Of a stretch of 64,000 nucleotides of DNA, positions 847 through 59,803 are shown one piece after another. A program made the position numbers and the translations under genes. This stretch comes from Patescibacteria group bacterium (GTDB taxonomy: Bacteria; Patescibacteriota; Patescibacteriia; Patescibacteriales; GWC2-42-12): contig JBAZRI010000001.1 of the NCBI GenBank assembly GCA_041662965.1, forward strand, positions 227,680 to 291,679, written 5' to 3'. The notes under the pieces are model-generated. The model saw only the letters and a program-made list of their open reading frames with translations, was not told where the DNA came from and ran no database searches. Within the stretch, counting starts at the first letter, position 1. Each line of letters opens with the position of its first letter.

Positions 847-951
847 TTCACCCCGTTAGATATAATTGATAATTATAATGTTATCAATATAACAATCGGG
901 GTTTATCAAATTATATGGCAATTAAAAAAGATGAGATATCTAACGGGGTAA
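847..951 (+). promoter_or_regulatory. Start-codon-enclosing inverted repeat, copy 1 (TTCACCCCGTTAGATAT ... ATATCTAACGGGGTAA)
   Basis: A 14-nt perfect complement (849-863 vs 936-950) flanks the rplU ATG at 915. An inner hairpin ATTGATAA..TTATCAAT lies within the loop. The same architecture occurs at 46265-46351 and 50252-50339. Confidence 0.55.
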
Positions 952-1253
952 AAATAGCAGTTATTAAAACCGGCGGCAAGCAATATAAAGTTAGCCAAGG
1001 GCAGAATTTGAAAATTGAGAAAATTGACGCCGAAGTCGGCGCGGTTTTAAAGTTTCCGGCTTTGCTTATAGCCGAAGAGGAAAATATTAACTTGGGCAAG
1101 CCTTTATTGGGCGAGATAGTTGAAGGCAAAATTTTAGAGCAGGGCAAGGGCAAGAAAGTCAGCGTGGTAAAGTTTAAAAACAAAACCAGATATAAAAGAA
1201 ACGTCGGCCATCGTCAGCCGTATACCAAAGTGGAAATAACCAAGATTGCATAA
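915..1253 (+). CDS. rplU: 50S ribosomal protein L21, with an unusual 12-aa N-terminal extension
   Basis: AVIKTGGKQYKVSQG ... KVSVVKFKNKTRYKRNVGHRQPYTKVEI are typical L21 motifs. Confidence 0.9.
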   Translation: MAIKKDEISNGVKIAVIKTGGKQYKVSQGQNLKIEKIDAEVGAVLKFPALLIAEEENINLGKPLLGEIVEGKILEQGKGKKVSVVKFKNKTRYKRNVGHRQPYTKVEITKIA

Positions 1254-1435: not shown

Positions 1436-2032
1436 TTACATCTCGTTCCTGTATTTCAGCGCGTTGGATAAAGTTATCTCGTCCGCGTATTCAAGGTCCG
1501 CGCCCATGGGCAGGCCTTTGGCCAGGCGGGTGATTTTTATTTTGTAAGGCTTTAATAATTTCACGATGTACATGGCCGTGGTTTCGCCTTCTAGATCCGG
1601 GTTAAAAGCCAGAATAATTTCTTTGGCGCTATTTTGCTTTAAGCGGTTTAACAGAGTTTTGATATTCAGCTGGTCCGGCTTTACGCCTTCAATGGTATTG
1701 ATGACTCCGCCTAAAATATGGTAAAGCCCGCTGTATTGCTTGGTGGCTTCAATGGCCAGCATATCCCGCGTATCCGCGACCAAGCAAATAACCGAGCGGT
1801 TTCTTTTCGCGTCAGAGCAGATTTGGCAAGGATTGGCTTCGGCGATAGACAAACAGGTTTGGCAGACCGCGGTTTTTTCTTTAACTTCGGCGATAGCCTG
1901 AGCAAATTGCTGCAGCCATTCCGGATGCTGGTTTAATAAATAAAAAACATAACGTTCGGCGGTTTTCGGGCCGACCGTCGGCAGTTTGGAAAAATATTCA
2001 ATTAAGTTTTGGATGGAAGAAGGGTAGCGCAT
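1436..2032 (-). CDS. recR: Recombination protein RecR
   Basis: TVGPKTAERYVFYLL HhH motif, CQTC..CQIC zinc finger, Toprim region (VICLVADTRDMLAIE), GLYHILGG. Start moved to MRYPSS because the upstream residues are repeat-encoded. Confidence 0.9.
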   Translation of the reverse strand: MRYPSSIQNLIEYFSKLPTVGPKTAERYVFYLLNQHPEWLQQFAQAIAEVKEKTAVCQTCLSIAEANPCQICSDAKRNRSVICLVADTRDMLAIEATKQYSGLYHILGGVINTIEGVKPDQLNIKTLLNRLKQNSAKEIILAFNPDLEGETTAMYIVKLLKPYKIKITRLAKGLPMGADLEYADEITLSNALKYRNEM

Positions 2033-2039
2033 ATAAATA

Positions 2040-2132
2040 ATAAATGACAAATGATTAATTTCTAATGACAAATTAATGCCAAAATACCAATGTCAAATAA
2101 TTATTTGTCATTTGTCATTGGAAATTTGACAT
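2040..2132. repeat. AATGACAAATG-type AT-rich palindromic repeat
   Basis: aaatgacaaatga..taatgacaaatt faces tttgtcatttgtcatt..tttgacatt. The same unit family occurs at 36886-37025. Confidence 0.6.
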
Positions 2133-4320: not shown

Positions 4321-4914
4321 ATGATGCGCTCATTAAATGAAATTTTAGAAAATGTAAACAGTACCGTAGCCAATAGAATAAGCGCTTCCCGCATTTTGAT
4401 GTTGCCATTCTATCTAATCTACCATTATATGGGCGAATATAGCATATCATTCGCTCTGGCTTTTTATATGGTAATCTCGGATTTTCTAGATGGGTATGTG
4501 GCGCGACTATACGGCGAGATTAGCGAATTCGGGAAAATTTTGGACCCGATAGCGGATAAGGCCGTTACTTTAACTTTGTTTGTCTCTTTATTGGCAGGCT
4601 CGTATGGTTTGATTGAACGGTCTCTTTGGCGCTCAATCATTATAACTTCGTTAGGTCTGTTGGCGTTGGAAGCAGTTCTTATTATTTTAGGGCATTGGGC
4701 GGCTAAGAAAAATTTGCATAATGGCTCTAATCTATTCGGGAAAGCTAAGATGATAACCGAGAGCTATATTTTTTTATTCGGTTATTATTTTTTCTTTCTC
4801 AACCCAGGCTTATCTCCATTGGCGGAAATCGGCAGATCAATTAATGATTTGCTCTATGTGGCCGTTGGACTAGCTTTTTTAAGCATAATAGGCCACATTA
4901 CAGAAAAAAGATAA
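4321..4914 (+). CDS. CDP-alcohol phosphatidyltransferase family protein (PgsA-like)
   Basis: Family signature DFLDGYVARLYGEISEFGKILDPIADK, plus TM segments. Strong SD GAGGAG just upstream; the start may be 4324. Confidence 0.8.
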   Translation: MMRSLNEILENVNSTVANRISASRILMLPFYLIYHYMGEYSISFALAFYMVISDFLDGYVARLYGEISEFGKILDPIADKAVTLTLFVSLLAGSYGLIERSLWRSIIITSLGLLALEAVLIILGHWAAKKNLHNGSNLFGKAKMITESYIFLFGYYFFFLNPGLSPLAEIGRSINDLLYVAVGLAFLSIIGHITEKR

Positions 4915-4963: not shown

Positions 4964-6301
4964 ATGAAAAATATTAAAATAAAAATTTATACCTTAGGCT
5001 GTAAAGTTAATCAGTATGATTCGGGTAAACTAGCCGGCGAGCTGGTTCGGGCCGGCTTTATAACCGCGGACAAAAACGCCGATATAGCCGTAATCAATAG
5101 CTGCGCCGTGACTAAAACTGCCATAATTAAAAGCGGCCGCATGGTTAAATTGGCTAAAAAAGAAAACCCCAAAGCTAAAATCGTTTTAGCCGGCTGCTGG
5201 CCGAAAACCTATGGAATAAAGAATATTGCCGCTGATTTTATTATTGCCAAAGGCGAGGTCGGCGAGGCTATTAAAAAAATTGCGAATCGCTTCTCTCTAT
5301 TTAAGGATAAGATCTTTACGCCGGCTATCGCCGAGCTCGCGCTAACCGGCCGGACAAGGTATTTTATAAAAATTCAGGACGGCTGCGAGCAGTATTGCAG
5401 TTATTGCGTTATCCCTTACGCGCGCGGCAAATTAATTAGCAGGGGAGAGAAAGAAATTATTCGCGAAATTGAACGGGCGGTAAAAGCCGGATATCGGGAG
5501 ATCGTGCTGTCCGGAATCCATTTAGGGTTGTATGGAAAAACGAGCCAATTGTCATTGCGAGCGACCGGAGGGAGCGAAGCAATCTCACGTACTCGGAGCT
5601 TAACCGGAGATTGCCGCGTCGCTGGCGCTCCTCGCAATGACAAGCTGACGGCATTATTAAAAAAATTAGTTAAAATAAAAGATCTCGGCCGGATCAGGTT
5701 AAGTTCAATTGAAATCACCGAAGTATCGAGCGAGCTGATAAATTTAATGGCCGGGTCAAATAAAATTTGTAAGCATCTGCATATACCATTGCAGTCCGGC
5801 TCGGATAAAATTTTAAAATTAATGAATCGGCCATATGATGTAAAATATTTTTCTGGCCGGATAAAAAAAATTAGGCAAATTATGCCGGATATTGCCATTA
5901 CTACCGACGTGATTACCGGCTTCCCGGGCGAGACCGAGAAAGATTTTAAAGACACGGAAAAATTTATTAAGCGGATAAAATTCAGCCGTCTGCATGTGTT
6001 TCCATATTCGGCTCACGAAAAAACGCCGGCCGCTAAATTCCCCGGCCAAGTTAAAGAAAAAAATAAAGCGCAACGGGCGGAAAAATTAAGGCGGCTTGGC
6101 CTTAAGCTGGCTGAAGATTATAAAAAGAAATTCAAGGGCAGGGAGCTGGAGATTACCGTGGAGCGGATAAAGCAAGATGAAATTATCGGTAAAACCGAGT
6201 TTTATTTTGATATTTTATTTAAAAAGCGACAGCTTATCGGCGGAGAAGCCAGCCAAAGTAAAAAATTAATAGGCACGATTGTTAAGGTAAAAAACAATTA
6301 A
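4964..6301 (+). CDS. mtaB: MiaB/MtaB-family radical-SAM tRNA methylthiotransferase carrying an in-frame repeat insertion
   Basis: MTTase N-domain (IYTLGCKVNQYDS), radical-SAM cluster (GCEQYCSYCVIPYARG) and a TRAM-like C-terminus. Residues LSLRATGGSEAISRTRSLTGDCRVAGAPRNDK are encoded by a palindromic repeat. Confidence 0.85.
   Translation: MKNIKIKIYTLGCKVNQYDSGKLAGELVRAGFITADKNADIAVINSCAVTKTAIIKSGRMVKLAKKENPKAKIVLAGCWPKTYGIKNIAADFIIAKGEVGEAIKKIANRFSLFKDKIFTPAIAELALTGRTRYFIKIQDGCEQYCSYCVIPYARGKLISRGEKEIIREIERAVKAGYREIVLSGIHLGLYGKTSQLSLRATGGSEAISRTRSLTGDCRVAGAPRNDKLTALLKKLVKIKDLGRIRLSSIEITEVSSELINLMAGSNKICKHLHIPLQSGSDKILKLMNRPYDVKYFSGRIKKIRQIMPDIAITTDVITGFPGETEKDFKDTEKFIKRIKFSRLHVFPYSAHEKTPAAKFPGQVKEKNKAQRAEKLRRLGLKLAEDYKKKFKGRELEITVERIKQDEIIGKTEFYFDILFKKRQLIGGEASQSKKLIGTIVKVKNN
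5550..5642. repeat. TGTCAT-hairpin palindromic element inserted in frame inside the mtaB-like CDS
   Basis: 93 bp (31 codons), TGTCATTGCGAGCGACCGGAGGGAGCGAAGCAATCTC ... GAGATTGCCGCGTCGCTGGCGCTCCTCGCAATGACA. Near-identical in layout to 58563-58654. Confidence 0.85.
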
Positions 6302-24994: not shown

Positions 24995-25369
24995 ATGACC
25001 CTATTAATCGACACCACGCAAAAAGATTTGATCGTGATCGGCTTAAAAGATAAAGATAAGCTTATCGCCGTTAAAAAATTCAAGTCGCACCGCACCCAGG
25101 CGGAAAAGCTTTTGCCGGCCATAGGCAGACTGCTTAAAGCCAATAAATTAAAATTAAGCGATCTTAAAAAGATAGAAGTGGAGAATAGGGGAGGCTCGTT
25201 TACTTCGCTGCGCATCGGCGTAGTGACGGCCAACGCTTTGGCTTACGCGCTCGGTATTCCGATATCTGGCGGCAAACAGCCGGAAAAAAGAAGCAAAAAG
25301 CTAGCCGCCGCCGAGCCGATATACGACAGGGAGCCGGAGATTACCAAGAAGAAATCCCGTAGCTCGTAA
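24995..25369 (+). CDS. tsaB: Short TsaB/YeaZ-like protein (N-terminal domain only)
   Basis: LLIDTT ... GGSFTSLRIGVVTANALAYALGIPI motif. The last codons and the stop lie inside a repeat block. Confidence 0.5.
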   Translation: MTLLIDTTQKDLIVIGLKDKDKLIAVKKFKSHRTQAEKLLPAIGRLLKANKLKLSDLKKIEVENRGGSFTSLRIGVVTANALAYALGIPISGGKQPEKRSKKLAAAEPIYDREPEITKKKSRSS

Positions 25370-25426
25370 CCCGCAACTCAAAACTTAAAATCGGGAGCTA
25401 CGAGTTATGGGTTACGAGTTATGAGA
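25358..25426. repeat. ACTCGTAAC/GTTACGAGT-type palindromic repeat cluster
   Basis: gtagctcgtaacccgcaactc ... gggagctacgagttatgggttacgagttatgag. Confidence 0.6.
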
Positions 25427-25484
25427 TTTGTGGATAAACTTGTTGATAACTGCCTGAGAAAAATTGTATAATATTTCAAATAAA

Positions 25485-32252: not shown

Positions 32253-32324
32253 TACCGCTACGGGGAATCGAACCCCGATTACCAGGATGAGAACCTGGCG
32301 TCCTAACCGTTAGACGATAGCGGC
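32253..32324 (-). tRNA. tRNA-Glu (anticodon CTC)
   Basis: The reverse complement folds as acceptor GCCGCTA/TAGCGGT, anticodon stem CCAGG/CCTGG with loop TTCTCAT, and T-arm CGGGG-TTCGATT-CCCCG. Confidence 0.85.
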
Positions 32325-32620: not shown

Positions 32621-32628
32621 ATAGGATT

Positions 32629-32670
32629 AAACGGCTAGCTTATAAAATTATTTTATAAGCTAGCCGTTTT
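32629..32670. terminator. Long perfect hairpin downstream of fmt; reads as hairpin plus TTTT on the plus strand
   Basis: AACGGCTAGCTTATAAAAT / ATTTTATAAGCTAGCCGTT followed by tttt. Confidence 0.65.
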
Positions 32671-32671
32671 A

Positions 32672-33607
32672 TTATCCCAATATATTGCCAATAAAATCTT
32701 TATGGCCTCGCAAGAATTCTTCGCTGGCTAGCGCGTTTTTTCCTTCAAGCTGCAAACTTTTTATAATTAAAGCGTCCCGGCCGCATTGCACGGCCAAGCC
32801 GCTGTTGTATTTAAAAGTTTTGCCCGGCTTATAAGAATTTATTTCTATAGGCTGATTTTGCGCGGAAATTATTTTAATTTGTTTGCCGTCCCACCAAGTC
32901 CAGGCCATGGGCCAGGGATTCATGGCTCTAATAAATTTTTCCAGATGCGCTGCCGGTTTTGACCAATTGATTAAACCGTCGCCCTTAGTTAAGGCTTTGG
33001 CGTAGCTGGCCTGGCTGGAATCTTGCGCTTTCGGCGTGATTTTTCCGGCTAAATATTTTTTGATCGCGGCAATCAGAAAATCCGCGCTTACTTCCGATAA
33101 TTTGTCATATAATGTTCCGGCCGTATCTTCATCGCTAATGTTAATCGCGGTTTGCGCTAAAATCGCTCCGGTATCTAAGCCTTTATCCATTTTTATTATG
33201 GTTAAACCGGTCTCTACGTCGCCGTTTAAGATAGCGGCCTGAATTATGGCCGCGCCCCGGTATTTAGGCAGAAGCGAAGCATGCAGATTTAGGCAGCCGT
33301 ATTTCGGCAGATTCAAAATTTCTTCAGGTATAAGCTGCGCGTAAGCCGCTACGATAATTAAATCGGGTTTTAGCAAAAGAATTTTATCTCTGATATCTAT
33401 AATATGCTCCGGCTGTAAAACCGTAATATTTTTTTTCTCGGCCGCGATTTTTATGGGCGAAGACGTTATTATTTGTTTTCTGCCCGTTGGCCTGTCCGGC
33501 TGGGTAATTGCTAAGACTATTTCAAAGTCGTTGTCTTTTATTAAAGCCTCAAACCCGGGTAAACCGAATTCGGCAGTGCCGATGAAGATTGTTTTAGTTT
33601 TATTCAT
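32672..33607 (-). CDS. fmt: Methionyl-tRNA formyltransferase
   Basis: IFIGTAEFG, ITQPDRPTGRKQ, NLHASLLPKYRGAAIIQAAI. Confidence 0.95.
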   Translation of the reverse strand: MNKTKTIFIGTAEFGLPGFEALIKDNDFEIVLAITQPDRPTGRKQIITSSPIKIAAEKKNITVLQPEHIIDIRDKILLLKPDLIIVAAYAQLIPEEILNLPKYGCLNLHASLLPKYRGAAIIQAAILNGDVETGLTIIKMDKGLDTGAILAQTAINISDEDTAGTLYDKLSEVSADFLIAAIKKYLAGKITPKAQDSSQASYAKALTKGDGLINWSKPAAHLEKFIRAMNPWPMAWTWWDGKQIKIISAQNQPIEINSYKPGKTFKYNSGLAVQCGRDALIIKSLQLEGKNALASEEFLRGHKDFIGNILG

Positions 33608-34116: not shown

Positions 34117-34247
34117 TGTCATTGCGAGGAGACTTGTAATCAAGTCGACGAAGCAATCTCTGGTTAAGTTCAGAGTACGTGAGATTGTGAAGTTTATCCC
34201 GAGCGATAGCAAGGGACCTGCATTCCTTTCAGTCGCTCGCAATGACA
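34117..34247. repeat. TGTCAT-hairpin palindromic element, ORF-less copy in a divergent promoter region
   Basis: TGTCATTGCGAGGAGACTTGTAATCAAGTCGACGAAGCAATCTC ... GAGATTGTGAAG ... CAGTCGCTCGCAATGACA. Confidence 0.8.
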
Positions 34248-36879: not shown

Positions 36880-36885
36880 GAAAAA

Positions 36886-37025
36886 ATGTAAAATGTAAAT
36901 TTCAAAATGAAAAATGACAATGTAAAGTTACTTGTCCCGCCTCGCTTACGGGGTCGGGGAAAATTATAAAATTAGGCAATTTTACATTTTGAATTGTCAT
37001 TTTAAACTTTGATCTTTAAATTTTT
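36886..37025. repeat. AATGACAATG/TGTAAA-type AT-rich inverted repeat flanking a GC-rich core
   Basis: tgtaaaatgtaaatttcaaaatgaaaaatgacaatgtaaag ... cccgcctcgcttacggggtcgggg ... caattttacattttgaattgtcattttaaac. Confidence 0.6.
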
Positions 37026-37217
37026 AATTAGTTATACTATACATTATAGTATACGAGGGGTAATAGGGCAAATTATACTAGTCTGTTTACTAAAATTAGC
37101 CAATATATTTATTATTAGTTGATTTTTTTAGTGAATTGTGTTAAGATATAATTTAAATATTTAGTGTGGATAGGGGGAAGGGGATAGTTTTTTCAAAATT
37201 TAATTATGGAGGGGAAA

Positions 37218-40511: not shown

Positions 40512-40593
40512 TGTCATTGCGGGCTTGACCCGCAATCCAGAAACTTGTTAATTGCGATTAAACATGGATTCCGGCTCGTAGGCCGGAATGACA
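40512..40593. repeat. TGTCAT-hairpin palindromic element (variant stems) in the clpB 5' leader
   Basis: TGTCATTGCGGGCTTGACCCGCAATCC ... GGATTCCGGCTCGTAGGCCGGAATGACA. Confidence 0.75.
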
Positions 40594-46264: not shown

Positions 46265-46351
46265 TTCACCCTGTTAGAAGTCTTAAATAAACAAGATATC
46301 TGGCAGGGCAAATTATAATTGCAGTTTCTATGGGAACTTCTAACAGGGTAA
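46265..46351 (+). promoter_or_regulatory. Start-codon-enclosing inverted repeat, copy 2 (TTCACCCTGTTAGAAGT ... ACTTCTAACAGGGTAA)
   Basis: A 14-nt perfect complement flanks the ATG at 46330. Base changes relative to copy 1 are compensated in both arms. Confidence 0.55.
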
Positions 46352-47571
46352 AAAAAATTATTAAGTTAATCATACCTATATTATTTTTAGGCCTGTTTTT
46401 AACCGCGCCTGATTTTAGCTATGGCCAGGCTGAAGCCGGGCAAAACGAAGAAGTCAGGCAGATAAACAAAGATATTCAGGAAAAAAAAGACAGGATTAAA
46501 AAAATCCAGGATCAGCAGGCGGTCTATGAAGCGCTGATTAAGAAAAAACAGAGCGAAAAAGCCAGCCTGAATAACCAGCTGGCGATTTTAGAAAACCGTT
46601 TGGCTAAAGCCGCTTTGGATATTGAAAGCGCGCAGACCGAGATTGACCGGACGAATTTAGAGATAGACAAAGTCAACCTGGAAATTAAGGCTAAAGATGA
46701 GCAGATTTTAAATCAAAAAGAGCATATCGCGTCAGTCGTTAGATTGATGCAAAAGCAAGACGATAAATCAACTTTGGAAATATTGCTTCTGAACGGCACT
46801 TTGAATGATTTTGTCAGCCAGGTTAAATATTTGGAAGATATAAATAAAGAAATCGGCCAGAGTTTGGAAACTTTAAAGCAATACAAAAAAGATTTGGAAG
46901 CCCAGCAGAAAGATTTGAACGGAAAAAAGCGGGAATTATCCGGCTTGAAGGTAGAGCTGGAAAACAGAAAAAGCGGCCTGGCTACGGAGCAGCAAAACAA
47001 GGCGTATGTTTTAGACCAGACTAAATCTTCGGAAAGAGAATACCAAAGGTTATTGGCATTAGCTAAACAAGAACAACAGCGGGCTGAGTCCGATATCGTC
47101 AGCCTGGAAAAAACCGTCAGGGCAAAATTATCTAAAATTTCCGGCCAAGCCTTGGAATTCAATGACGCGGGTTTTATCTGGCCGGTGACGAAAAATATGG
47201 TTATGGCGACTTTCCATGATCCGGACTATCCGTTCCGCTATATTTTTGAGCATCCGGCCATAGATATCAGGGCCGGTCAAGGCAGCGCCTTAAGGGCCGC
47301 GGCTTCAGGCTACGTGGCCATAGCTAAAAACGCGGGTAAAGGCTATAGCTATATTATGATAGTGCATGGCAACGGGCTGGCTACGGTTTACGGGCATGTG
47401 TCAAAAATCTATGTCCAAGCCGATGAATACGTAGTCCAGGGGCAGGCGATCGGCCTTTCGGGCGGCATGCCGGGCACTAACGGAGCCGGCTCGTTAACCA
47501 CCGGGCCGCATCTGCATTTTGAAGTCCGCTTAAACGGAATTCCGGTTAATCCTTTGGAATATCTGCCGTAA
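46330..47571 (+). CDS. M23-family peptidase with an N-terminal coiled coil (EnvC-like)
   Basis: A long coiled coil followed by HPAIDIRAG..G..V.A..SG.V, GNGLATVYGHVS and GPHLHFEVRLNG. Confidence 0.85.
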   Translation: MGTSNRVKKIIKLIIPILFLGLFLTAPDFSYGQAEAGQNEEVRQINKDIQEKKDRIKKIQDQQAVYEALIKKKQSEKASLNNQLAILENRLAKAALDIESAQTEIDRTNLEIDKVNLEIKAKDEQILNQKEHIASVVRLMQKQDDKSTLEILLLNGTLNDFVSQVKYLEDINKEIGQSLETLKQYKKDLEAQQKDLNGKKRELSGLKVELENRKSGLATEQQNKAYVLDQTKSSEREYQRLLALAKQEQQRAESDIVSLEKTVRAKLSKISGQALEFNDAGFIWPVTKNMVMATFHDPDYPFRYIFEHPAIDIRAGQGSALRAAASGYVAIAKNAGKGYSYIMIVHGNGLATVYGHVSKIYVQADEYVVQGQAIGLSGGMPGTNGAGSLTTGPHLHFEVRLNGIPVNPLEYLP

Positions 47572-58562: not shown

Positions 58563-58654
58563 TGTCATTGCGAGCGACCGCAGGGAGCGCGGCAATCTCA
58601 CATACGTGGGATTTAACCAGAGATTGCTTCGTCGCTGCGCTTCTCGCAATGACA
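58563..58654. repeat. TGTCAT-hairpin palindromic element, ORF-less copy between GT4 and GT2
   Basis: TGTCATTGCGAGCGACCGCAGGGAGCGCGGCAATCTCACATACGTGGGATTTAACCAGAGATTGCTTCGTCGCTGCGCTTCTCGCAATGACA. Confidence 0.85.
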
Positions 58655-59803
58655 GTGAGAGAATGTTATTGCTTTATATATTTTTTTAATCTGTTTTTCC
58701 CAATTAAATTCTTTGATCGCTCGCTCTCTCCCCTGCTCGCCTAATTTTTTTCGCAGTCCGGGATCCCGGGCTAATTTAATGATAGCCGAAGCGATTTGCT
58801 CCGTATCTTCGGGATCAACTAAGAGGCCGTTTAAGCCGGCTATTACGGCGTCGCCGACTCCGCCGCTTTTGCCGGCTATTACCGGCTTGCCGGCCAGATT
58901 AGCTTCCAGATAAACTAGGCCAAAGCCCTCAAAATCGCCGTTAATATTTCGGCTAGGCATAATAAAGATGTCGCTGGCATTATACCAATTATCGCGCTCC
59001 TTGTCCGTAGCTTGATTTATTATTATAACTTGTTTTTCCAATCCCAAATTTGAAATTTGAAATTTTAAATTTTTTAATTCGGCTCCGCCGCCTAAAATAA
59101 TATAAATTAAATTCGGCGCTTGTCTTAGCGCTTCCGGCAGAGCTTCTATGACTTTATCAAAACCTTTGCGTTTTACCAGCCTGCCGACCGATAATAAAAT
59201 TATTTTATCGGTTAAATTATATTGTTTTTTTAAAGCAGAAATTTTTTCCGGCGCCGCCGGCCGCGCCGGCTCAATCGCCGGGTTAACGACGGCTATTTTA
59301 TCCGCGCTTAACGGGAAAAATTGTTTGGTTAAATTCGCCGTGTAGCCGTTTAAGCAAATTATTTTATGGGTATTAGATAAAATTTTTTTAGCCAGCCATT
59401 TTTTTCTGGGTTTCTTCAAGGCGTAAGTTAAATCCATGCCGTGTAAAAATACCGAATATTTTATTTTAAAAAATTTGGCGCAAATCAACGCGGCCGCGCC
59501 TAAGGGCAAAATTTGGCCGACTAAAATATGCTCGATTTTTTCTTGTTTTATTTCCCGCCGCAAAGCGAAATAAGCCGGCAGCCATTTTAACAGCGGCAGT
59601 TTATTATTAATCAAGCGCCCATCCTTGTTATCAAGCACGGAAATTTCGTCCGGCTTGGGCTTGCCCTCCGACTTGTCCGCCAAAGCTTTAGCGTCGGTGG
59701 AAGCTTTAGCGAAGGAGGGCCAGTATTTTACCAGATTACCGTAATAATTGGCCACGCCGCCATGAAACGGCGGATATTCTAATGTAAATAATAGAGTTTT
59801 CAT
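58613..59803 (-). CDS. Glycosyltransferase family 4 whose last ~14 codons and stop lie inside a palindromic repeat; also carries an internal repeat-encoded insert
   Basis: GFGLVYLEANLAGKPVIAGKSGGVGDAV motif. The C-terminus ...FSHCHCEKRSDEAISG is repeat-encoded. The FAKASTDAKALADKSEGKPKP insert lies near the N-terminus. Confidence 0.8.
   Translation of the reverse strand: MKTLLFTLEYPPFHGGVANYYGNLVKYWPSFAKASTDAKALADKSEGKPKPDEISVLDNKDGRLINNKLPLLKWLPAYFALRREIKQEKIEHILVGQILPLGAAALICAKFFKIKYSVFLHGMDLTYALKKPRKKWLAKKILSNTHKIICLNGYTANLTKQFFPLSADKIAVVNPAIEPARPAAPEKISALKKQYNLTDKIILLSVGRLVKRKGFDKVIEALPEALRQAPNLIYIILGGGAELKNLKFQISNLGLEKQVIIINQATDKERDNWYNASDIFIMPSRNINGDFEGFGLVYLEANLAGKPVIAGKSGGVGDAVIAGLNGLLVDPEDTEQIASAIIKLARDPGLRKKLGEQGRERAIKEFNWEKQIKKIYKAITFSHCHCEKRSDEAISG
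59663..59720. repeat. GCCCTCC...GGAGGGC palindromic repeat inside the GT4 CDS
   Basis: gccctccgacttgtccgccaaagctttagcgtcggtggaagctttagcgaaggagggc. A related sequence (gcccgcctcgctaaagctatggcggacaagccggc) lies at 25675-25712. Confidence 0.65.

Follow-up and report, generated by a model that had tools for sequence, protein, structure and literature searches.

In-frame hairpin repeat in a loop of a patescibacterial MtaB-type tRNA methylthiotransferase

How does a strong palindrome come to lie inside a conserved tRNA-modification gene, and what becomes of the gene that receives it? A stretch of 64,000 nucleotides from an ultra-small Patescibacteria group bacterium (contig JBAZRI010000001.1, positions 227,680 to 291,679; the whole stretch analyzed is called the window here) raises this question. 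Its mtaB gene (4964-6301, plus strand), encoding an MtaB-type radical-SAM tRNA methylthiotransferase, contains a 93-bp palindromic element, TGTCAT...ATGACA, with ends TGTCATTGCGAG...CTCGCAATGACA, at 5550-5642. An earlier account based on the letters of the DNA, the sequence-only reading, had proposed a selfish palindromic repeat tolerated in frame, as for the Rickettsia palindromic elements (RPEs), and had named gene inactivation and a regulatory part played by the mRNA hairpin as alternatives. Our analysis supports the first proposal through the dispersed family to which the element belongs, the orthologs that are empty at the site, the disordered loop and the intact gene. We put at about 80% the probability that the element is a non-autonomous GC-rich hairpin repeat, one of a dispersed family, that inserted in frame in the mtaB loop and is translated, leaving an enzyme that is probably functional.

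A hairpin within an intact mtaB gene

The terminal inverted-repeat arms, TTGTCATTGCGAG (5549-5561) and CTCGCAATGACAA (5631-5643), are 13 nt long and 100% complementary, and an inner 8-bp stem, GCAATCTC/GAGATTGC (5579-5586/5607-5614), encloses a 20-nt central loop, the whole inner hairpin spanning 5579-5614. The inner-stem motif is conserved across the family, recurring both in metagenome copies and among the aligned copies. RNA folding of 5540-5655 gives -49 kcal/mol (z = -3.64), a value equaled in 1 of 200 shuffles. The element is in codon phase 1, with one host base of a Leu codon preceding it; it begins at base 2 of that codon and finishes at base 1 of a Lys codon. The 32 codons that it touches (5549-5644, plus strand) encode LSLRATGGSEAISRTRSLTGDCRVAGAPRNDK (residues 196-227), a peptide of net positive charge in the context ...GIHLGLYGKTSQ-LSLRATGGSEAISRTRSLTGDCRVAGAPRNDK-LTALLKKL...RIRLSSIE. 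The sequence-only reading had given this peptide and its flanks exactly, although the peptide it quoted has 32 residues and the net gain is 31 codons. It was also right that a 93-bp TGTCAT hairpin lies in an mtaB-like coding sequence without introducing a stop codon, the open reading frame (ORF) being open throughout its 445 codons, and that the protein continues normally on both sides, with the radical-SAM core before the insert and RIRLSSIE after it.

Neither RNA nor protein databases gave the element a name. At gathering thresholds, an Rfam scan of the window returned three tRNAs only and no family matching the element, and a permissive scan of 5500-5700 returned one chance-level lncRNA match and nothing else. 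The insert peptides, read in either orientation, gave one candidate and no matches in a word-index search of proteins. Searched with phmmer against 1.84 billion representative proteins, the 32-residue peptide had only five matches, and the three that were inspected are spurious ORFs running through tandem arrays of related repeats.

The host protein has the defining features of its family. Pfam recognizes UPF0004 and Radical_SAM domains, and the MtaB equivalog TIGR01579 (NCBIfam) scores 379.5 bits against a cutoff of 357.05, the match being split into two stretches at the insert. The radical-SAM cluster motif, read from the sequence as C141-x3-C145-x2-C148 (5384-5407, plus strand), is intact and lies upstream of the insert. 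Both sets of three cluster cysteines (C13, C47 and C78; C141, C145 and C148) are invariant in an alignment of 35 orthologs, and the insert-bearing protein also retains about 90 invariant alignment positions. Together, the UPF0004/radical-SAM/TRAM architecture, the cysteines and the equivalog score identify the protein as MtaB. Its AlphaFold2 model resembles the structures of MtaB, MiaB and RimO (9a6d, 7mjz and 4jc0) with template modeling (TM) scores of 0.76-0.78. The identical protein is recorded from NCBI, JGI and ENA, and its nearest relatives are labeled Falkowbacteria or Patescibacteria.

The insert occupies a loop. A phmmer alignment to MiaB (7mjz) breaks there, into query residues 3-190 and 231-420, with 40 query residues standing against 14 in MiaB. 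In the AlphaFold2 model of the insert-bearing protein (predicted TM score, pTM, 0.77), the per-residue confidence measure pLDDT is below 50 at residues 195-223, between a strand at 179-183 and a helix at 227-235, while the remaining radical-SAM and TRAM parts are modeled confidently. The beta-alpha loop thus has 37 residues, against 8 in the empty ortholog P0012 (pTM 0.85), whose short loop is modeled with confidence and whose secondary-structure elements follow in the same order. Comparison of the models with and without the insert therefore places it in a variable surface loop, where it is disordered in AlphaFold2 and compatible with the fold.

These observations bear on inactivation, which the sequence-only reading had entertained and which our data do not favor. 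A pseudogene in the making might be suspected, given 31 residues inserted beside the conserved GIHLG strand of the radical-SAM core domain. Inactivation is nevertheless unlikely, because the cluster cysteines are invariant, the equivalog cutoff is passed, the fold matches that of MtaB, MiaB and RimO, and the empty ortholog has the same order of secondary structure. The reading frame is open, the fold is confident outside the loop, and the dozens of insert-bearing orthologs are all full-length ORFs; among the best 120 MtaB matches no gene is split, and query coverage is at least 77% in every one. A decaying gene is thus an improbable explanation, and the enzyme most likely remains functional, as judged from these sequence and model features.

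Comparison with orthologs establishes that the insert is specific to a lineage. In the syntenic loci L001 (filled) and L003 (empty), both arranged NusG-SecE-...-DnaB-MtaB-Wzz, the mtaB genes are 90% identical in nucleotide sequence and differ by the element. From GIHLG to RLSSIE, most of 117 orthologs have a segment of 25-30 residues. The range is 22-36 residues in the 63 readable insert-free loci, for the most part GTDB species representatives, with Bacillota and other phyla among them; of the GTDB representatives only L005 carries an insert. Neither close syntenic orthologs nor any of the distant ones have the element, and a homologous, repeat-unrelated segment, for which the sequence-only reading had asked us to look, is not what orthologs hold at this position, where the baseline is the 25-30-residue loop. 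Its other concern, an assembly artefact, can be excluded, because a separate ENA assembly has the same 5,338 nt around mtaB, letter for letter, and further insert alleles reappear in different samples (L001/L002 and L086/L087). An ordinary lineage-specific loop or an assembly chimera is accordingly scarcely credible: the loop is indeed variable in general, but intergenic copies in the window can be aligned with the inserted segment base by base, and neither the sequence of that segment nor the other alleles are confined to a single assembly or sample.

The base composition of the site suggested a targeting preference that we do not retain. No 45 nt in the gene of the closest ortholog are as AT-rich as its empty site (7% GC), but in more distant orthologs from the candidate phyla radiation (CPR) the site is only mildly AT-rich, at the 23rd percentile on average, which leaves AT-rich targeting a weak proposition.

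Several features of the neighboring loci were recorded along the way. In L003 (9282-9614), L004 (934-1311) and L209 (626-904), and not in L001, L208 or the window, the gene directly upstream of mtaB is a small GIY-YIG gene, and a gene for an HTH_28+rve (IS481-like) transposase lies just downstream of mtaB in L086 (5016-5927) and L087 (3294-4205); for neither gene did we find a link to the element in these relatives. Many metagenome-assembled genome records titled 'uncultured Gammaproteobacteria bacterium' (L005-L008, L011, L013, L015 and others) encode MtaB proteins 44-67% identical to the patescibacterial query. L005 has CPR-like synteny around mtaB, and the Gammaproteobacteria titles look like placeholder or wrong taxonomy.

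Recurrent insertion and allele turnover at one loop

The mtaB loop has received inserts repeatedly, which the sequence-only reading had not anticipated. Among the 120 best orthologs, 38 have at least 12 inserted residues there, and any other internal site has such an insert in at most 2. The peptides fall into recognizable types: LSLR[A/G]...[A/P]RND[N/K/S] in 13 proteins; SVMPDLIRHP...LDSRLRGND or SVIAGLTRNP in about 7; and SVIPA.EPESR...PAMTN, found alone in 2 and nested within the LSLR type in 3. Many further peptides at the same loop resemble translated GC-rich repeats. The inserts represent at least three related hairpin families, here A, B and C, and TGTCAT/ATGACA ends are common to all three. 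At the DNA level, the 'LSLRGAPATKQS...' peptides are the same element family in reverse orientation.

Family A elements enter exactly four codons past the Gly of LYG in either orientation, so that forward and reverse alleles share both the nucleotide position and the length of 93 nt. The insertion point of family C is three codons upstream of that of family A. Families B and C have the architecture GTC-hairpin-CC...GG-hairpin-GAC. Elements are also found within elements: in L208 (protein P0007) a family B element takes the place of the center of A, with 18 nt of A left at each end, and the MtaB loops of P0002 and P0042 contain nested elements as well. In P0010 and P0031 only a degenerate right end of A is left (..CAPRNDN and ..GARDEN).

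The reading frame of these inserts appears to be under selection, as the alleles themselves suggest. Read in phase 2, the 93-nt A element always ends in TGA, and phase 0 is open in one orientation only; phase 1 (SLR...RND) is the sole phase open in both. All mtaB alleles examined are in phase 1, with lengths of 93 or 102 bp, as would be expected if the insert were translated and frame-breaking insertions purged. Among the matches listed from metagenomes, by contrast, the lengths modulo 3 of 127 family members are distributed 48/33/46. The in-frame, stop-free pattern argues against splicing or ribosomal bypass. A GC-rich hairpin within a coding region does resemble the known bypass elements, and the segment could be imagined to be removed from the mRNA or skipped by the ribosome, as in T4 gene 60 or the mitochondrial 'byp' elements. 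Yet every mtaB allele is a multiple of 3, stop-free and in the phase that is open both ways, which would be needless for a skipped segment; no stop follows a take-off codon, there are no matching take-off and landing codons, a self-splicing intron would have to be far larger than 93 nt, and Rfam offered nothing. We therefore regard an untranslated insert as very improbable.

Alleles at the loop appear to turn over. A neighbor-joining tree from sequences with the loop masked shows filled loops, empty loops and loops of other families intermingled among sister taxa. Between orthologs, the element arms are 88-97% identical, whereas the genes are 66-72% identical and their 4-fold sites 33-52%; because the arms are far more alike than the 4-fold sites, the inserts are not relics of long-past insertions in decay. 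Unrelated metagenome contigs of 34-65% GC have arms that closely resemble these, and arm conservation is thus a property of the family and not of mtaB.

Exchange between lineages is suggested by one pair of strains. The loci L085 and L086 overlap over 4,752 nt and are 99.5% identical, differing by a 155-nt patch with an inverted element; a region of about 300 nt around the element contains 79 of the 100 mismatches. Of the 83 differences in the gene itself, 79 fall at positions 474-629. In L086 the element is that of L085 in reverse complement (84 of 93 positions identical), and in the upstream flank differences occur mainly at every third base. The simplest reading of the patch is that it would be a short homologous-recombination tract from a diverged allele carrying an inverted element. 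This is the only recombinant pair examined, and it was chosen because its elements differ.

Such observations invite the idea that the hairpin is a homing-like or invertible cassette that drives its own allelic spread into a targeted hotspot through double-strand-break repair or gene conversion, with co-conversion of the flanks and flipping in situ. Several results agree with it. Forward and reverse alleles sit at an identical nucleotide with an identical length; the sole hyperdivergent patch in 4.7 kb of near-identical DNA is centered on the element and takes in about 50 nt of flank, where the changes are of synonymous type; the centers of the mtaB elements of the window and L210 are 91% identical, against 72% for the host genes; and the loop is filled in nearly a third of the orthologs, 38/120. 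Other results disagree. No endonuclease or recombinase is linked to the element, the offset insertion point of family C makes the hotspot a region and not a single site, no target motif emerges across 129 copies, and the recombination evidence comes from the one selected pair. We consider active spread of this kind unlikely, if the most serious of the competitors to passive insertion and tolerance.

Dispersal of the element family in the window and beyond

The element in mtaB is not alone in the window. The 11-mer GTCATTGCGAG, with at most one mismatch, occurs 9 times, against 0.54 expected, and 9 occurrences were reached in 0 of 100 shuffles. These matches belong to four full elements and one terminus of a related variant. 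Besides the mtaB copy, the full elements are an intergenic copy of 139 bp at 1291-1429, between convergent ORFs at 915-1253 (plus strand) and 1436-2071 (minus strand); an intergenic copy of 131 bp at 34117-34247; and a copy of 92 bp at 58563-58654 that supplies the last 13 codons and stop (CHCEKRSDEAISG*) of a GT4 glycosyltransferase gene. The elements thus measure 92-139 bp, and their terminal inverted repeats of 12-13 nt are perfect. In an alignment of copies the arms are invariant and the centers differ. The mtaB copy has the same orientation as the copies at 1291 and 58563, the sole difference being a swapped dinucleotide variant in each arm. The arm of family A alone forms only a 5-bp ATTGC/GCAAT stem, the long hairpin being clear for the whole element. 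The related variant (40512-40593, intergenic) has the second architecture, GTC-(ATTGCGGG..CCCGCAAT)-CC...GG-(ATTCCGGC..GCCGGAAT)-GAC, which is that of families B and C, and its end type is that of the 'SVIPA..PAMTN' and 'SVIAGLTRNP' inserts in the MtaB loops of orthologs.

The GT4 gene (58613-59803, minus strand, 396 aa) is a second gene of the window altered by repeats, likewise unforeseen in the sequence-only reading. Its C-terminal tail is encoded by the element (58613-58654), and the same copy lies just upstream of the start codon of the next minus-strand gene. A 91%-identical ortholog, P0127, is without the element-encoded tail, and P0128, of another lineage, has the same tail. The GT4 gene holds a further, different GC-rich in-frame hairpin at about 59660-59723 (-42.2 kcal/mol, z = -5.45), which encodes KASTDAKALADKSEGKPKPD; this segment is absent from close orthologs including P0127, and other repeat-like inserts occupy the same site in P0177, P0178, P0196, P0216 and P0243.

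Beyond the window, the family is very widespread, with members in many other phyla. A metagenome scan for both termini found it on at least 120 contigs with GC contents of 29-71%, and copies with exact ends are present on 32 IMG/VR viral contigs. Copies in IMG/VR (L215, L217, L218, L232, L237, L241 and others) lie between capsid-like and portal-like structural genes of about 11-12 related predicted phage contigs, and where copies on viral contigs are paired, the ORFs that separate them are phage genes. A BLAST search of plasmids found a full-length, unannotated copy on a Calothrix plasmid and a partial match in Halomonas, with no named feature. Clear in-frame insertions elsewhere affect a class I lysyl-tRNA synthetase (LysRS), a TP_methylase (RsmI-like), a B12-type radical-SAM protein, an acetyl-CoA synthetase and an NTPase, and in several of these enzymes the Pfam domain spans the insert. 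In L114 (1660-1752), for example, a TGTCAT element is in frame in a CPR-like class I LysRS/B3_4 protein that has a second repeat-like insert (..SGKRSQVPSGTWRSASRISNVVRDSGQARMTD..). In L188, two tandem in-frame copies (5707-5792 and 5800-5885) stand one codon apart in a large, apparently membrane-bound protein, which was not checked against Pfam. One contig of 5.4 kb, L090, has two copies (899-982 and 4424-4507) whose flanks are mutually reverse-complementary and symmetric about the contig center; it is probably a palindromic assembly or amplification chimera.

If a passively tolerated repeat is the right description, the steps may be envisaged as follows. A hairpin repeat would have entered AT-rich DNA encoding the connecting beta-alpha loop of the MtaB radical-SAM domain; with a length of 93 bp and an entry in phase 1, the frame would continue and about 31 extra residues would be translated, forming a segment predicted to be disordered. 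The sequence of the peptide would be irrelevant, the palindrome in the nucleic acid being what persists. Alleles would then turn over by several routes, all of them inferred: elements would be inserted or deleted, would invert in situ or be converted ectopically, and lineages would exchange short patches by homologous recombination.

Certain results weigh against this account or restrain it. Direct duplications of 1-5 nt are at chance level among 129 copies, which also share no target motif, and when 2,035 ORFs from about 1 Mb of sequence surrounding 150 copies (and not from complete genomes) were clustered, only phage structural-protein clusters and no transposase emerged; with no duplication of the target site, no motif there and no partner transposase to point to, 'mobile' is a description drawn from dispersal. 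In eight aligned copies, one of them partly off register, the stems are invariant with 0 compensatory pairs, so that covariation speaks neither for nor against a selected structure. Passive tolerance alone does not account for the very high conservation of the arms, nor for the gathering of inserts on one loop. Lastly, translation of the insert and activity of the enzyme are themselves inferred from the gene, and may be spoken of as probable.

It might instead be supposed that the insert has been domesticated, the hairpin regulating mtaB through ribosome pausing, an RNase III site or mRNA stability, or the basic disordered loop aiding tRNA binding. The strength of the hairpin, kept in either orientation, the high conservation of the arms and the net positive charge of the peptide in an RNA-binding enzyme would suit such a role. 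The insert is missing from close sisters, though, and always from distant orthologs; the site is occupied by unrelated families and in both orientations, with unrelated peptides as the result; and the arms are conserved family-wide, also in unrelated contigs. A function for the host is thus doubtful, somewhat more so than active spread, and a translated, tolerated repeat is the reading we prefer. At its most speculative, the evidence could be extended to say that the TGTCATTGCGAG-ended hairpins are an undescribed pan-bacterial superfamily of mobile hairpins colonizing permissive loops of essential genes, with the MtaB loop a recombination-driven landing pad in which cassettes home or invert through short gene-conversion tracts, flipping and nesting. 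Their arms are nearly invariant in genomes of 29-71% GC and on phage contigs, they make no target-site duplication, and they have no known transposase associated with them. We offer this wider view tentatively, as a minority opinion of our own.

The window holds other repeats as well. For the heptamer TGTCATT the count is 24 and the expectation 3.9; besides the elements there are AT-rich inverted arrays, AATGACAAAT...ATTTGTCATT, at 2036-2133, between minus-strand ybaB-like and recR-like small genes, and at 36885-37029; these could be protein-binding sites with the terminal motif of the element. A second palindromic repeat family, with ends ATTCACCC(C/T)GTTAGA...TCTAAC(G/A)GGGTAAAAA and differing centers, occurs at about 847-960 and about 46270-46356. 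A near-perfect 23-nt palindrome (96% complementary, 1-nt spacer) lies at 32626-32672, about 300 nt from a tRNA gene at 32253-32324, and an inverted repeat with 28-nt arms that are 82% complementary lies at 25352-25429, near 25.4 kb. Other stable GC-rich stretches within window genes (29561, 11761 and 9301) contain no element-like repeat.

Significance and comparison with known systems

Selfish DNA within protein-coding genes is best known from Rickettsia, and our data extend it to Patescibacteria (CPR), another lineage of reduced genomes. The consequences for annotation are practical. GC-rich hairpin repeats inflate and diversify CPR proteins, in the window MtaB and the GT4 glycosyltransferase, and split hidden Markov model matches in two; in the match list, insert-bearing orthologs are more often named 'MiaB/RimO family' or 'radical SAM protein'. 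The same repeats generate many spurious 'hypothetical proteins'. The single-loop hotspot is also a natural system for following the gain, loss and exchange of palindromic repeats, and may help to identify what conserves the repeat arms across phyla.

The closest parallels are in the literature on small bacterial repeats, where, among the papers searched, we found none giving the terminal sequences or typical peptides in a relevant context, and none describing such repeats in CPR. A 2024 review of MITEs, the miniature inverted-repeat transposable elements, describes in-frame fusions by the RPEs of Rickettsia, intragenic ERIC, QMITE1 of Coxiella and Anabaena MITEs (PMC10969869). Di Nocera et al. 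(2013) described intragenic dimers of repetitive extragenic palindromic (REP) sequences encoding 20-30 residues in several phyla, and equated RPE-4 and RPE-6 with CGTC-type REPs (PMC3733652).

Like the RPEs, the elements studied here are dispersed palindromic repeats of a small-genome bacterium, both intergenic and in frame in housekeeping genes (for RPEs, Ogata et al. 2000 and 2002, summarized in PMC10969869); the ORF is preserved, the insert is compatible with the fold, and no transposase is identified. They differ in that the mtaB element is patescibacterial, has TGTCATTGCGAG ends and measures 93 bp, against about 100-150 bp for RPEs, and in that one loop of one gene has been hit repeatedly, by several families and in both orientations, with near-identical strains differing. 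The element is therefore RPE-like in kind, being dispersed, in frame and in a surface loop, and we make no claim that it belongs to the RPE sequence families.

Comparison with REPs and REPINs gives a similar mixture. Inverted short palindromic units form a larger hairpin, clearly so in the B and C types (40512-40593, L208 and L209), and target-site duplications are lacking in both. The termini, however, are of the TGTCAT kind (TGTCATTGCGAG/CTCGCAATGACA), not the GTAG or CGTC tag that defines REPs (PMC3733652), and no RAYT or TIRYT gene lies near any copy in the 64-kb window, the short flanks or the 1 Mb around 150 copies, complete genomes again being outside the search. With MITEs the element shares its small size, non-coding nature, terminal inverted repeats, dispersal and occasional in-frame read-through; it differs in having no target-site duplication, and in the same 1 Mb, which does not cover complete genomes, no recurrent cluster of transposase-like ORFs points to a cognate insertion sequence with the same ends.

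More distant analogies are also instructive. The mobile GC clusters of yeast mitochondria are GC-rich palindromes that invade AT-rich genomes, coding regions included. The 'byp' elements are skipped by the ribosome, and for them a continuous frame is not required; the mtaB element differs in being in frame and stop-free, which argues for translation. Homing group I introns and inteins resemble it as inserts at a fixed site of a conserved gene, patchy among relatives, with flanks co-converted (here, in one recombinant pair), but the mtaB element encodes no endonuclease and is probably not removed from RNA or protein. In sum, the insertion is RPE-like or intragenic-REP-like, in a new phylum and by a very widespread and apparently unnamed hairpin family. 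Three things are less ordinary: a single loop is the hotspot, one site has alleles that are forward, reverse, nested or of another family, and near-identical strains differ by a recombination patch.

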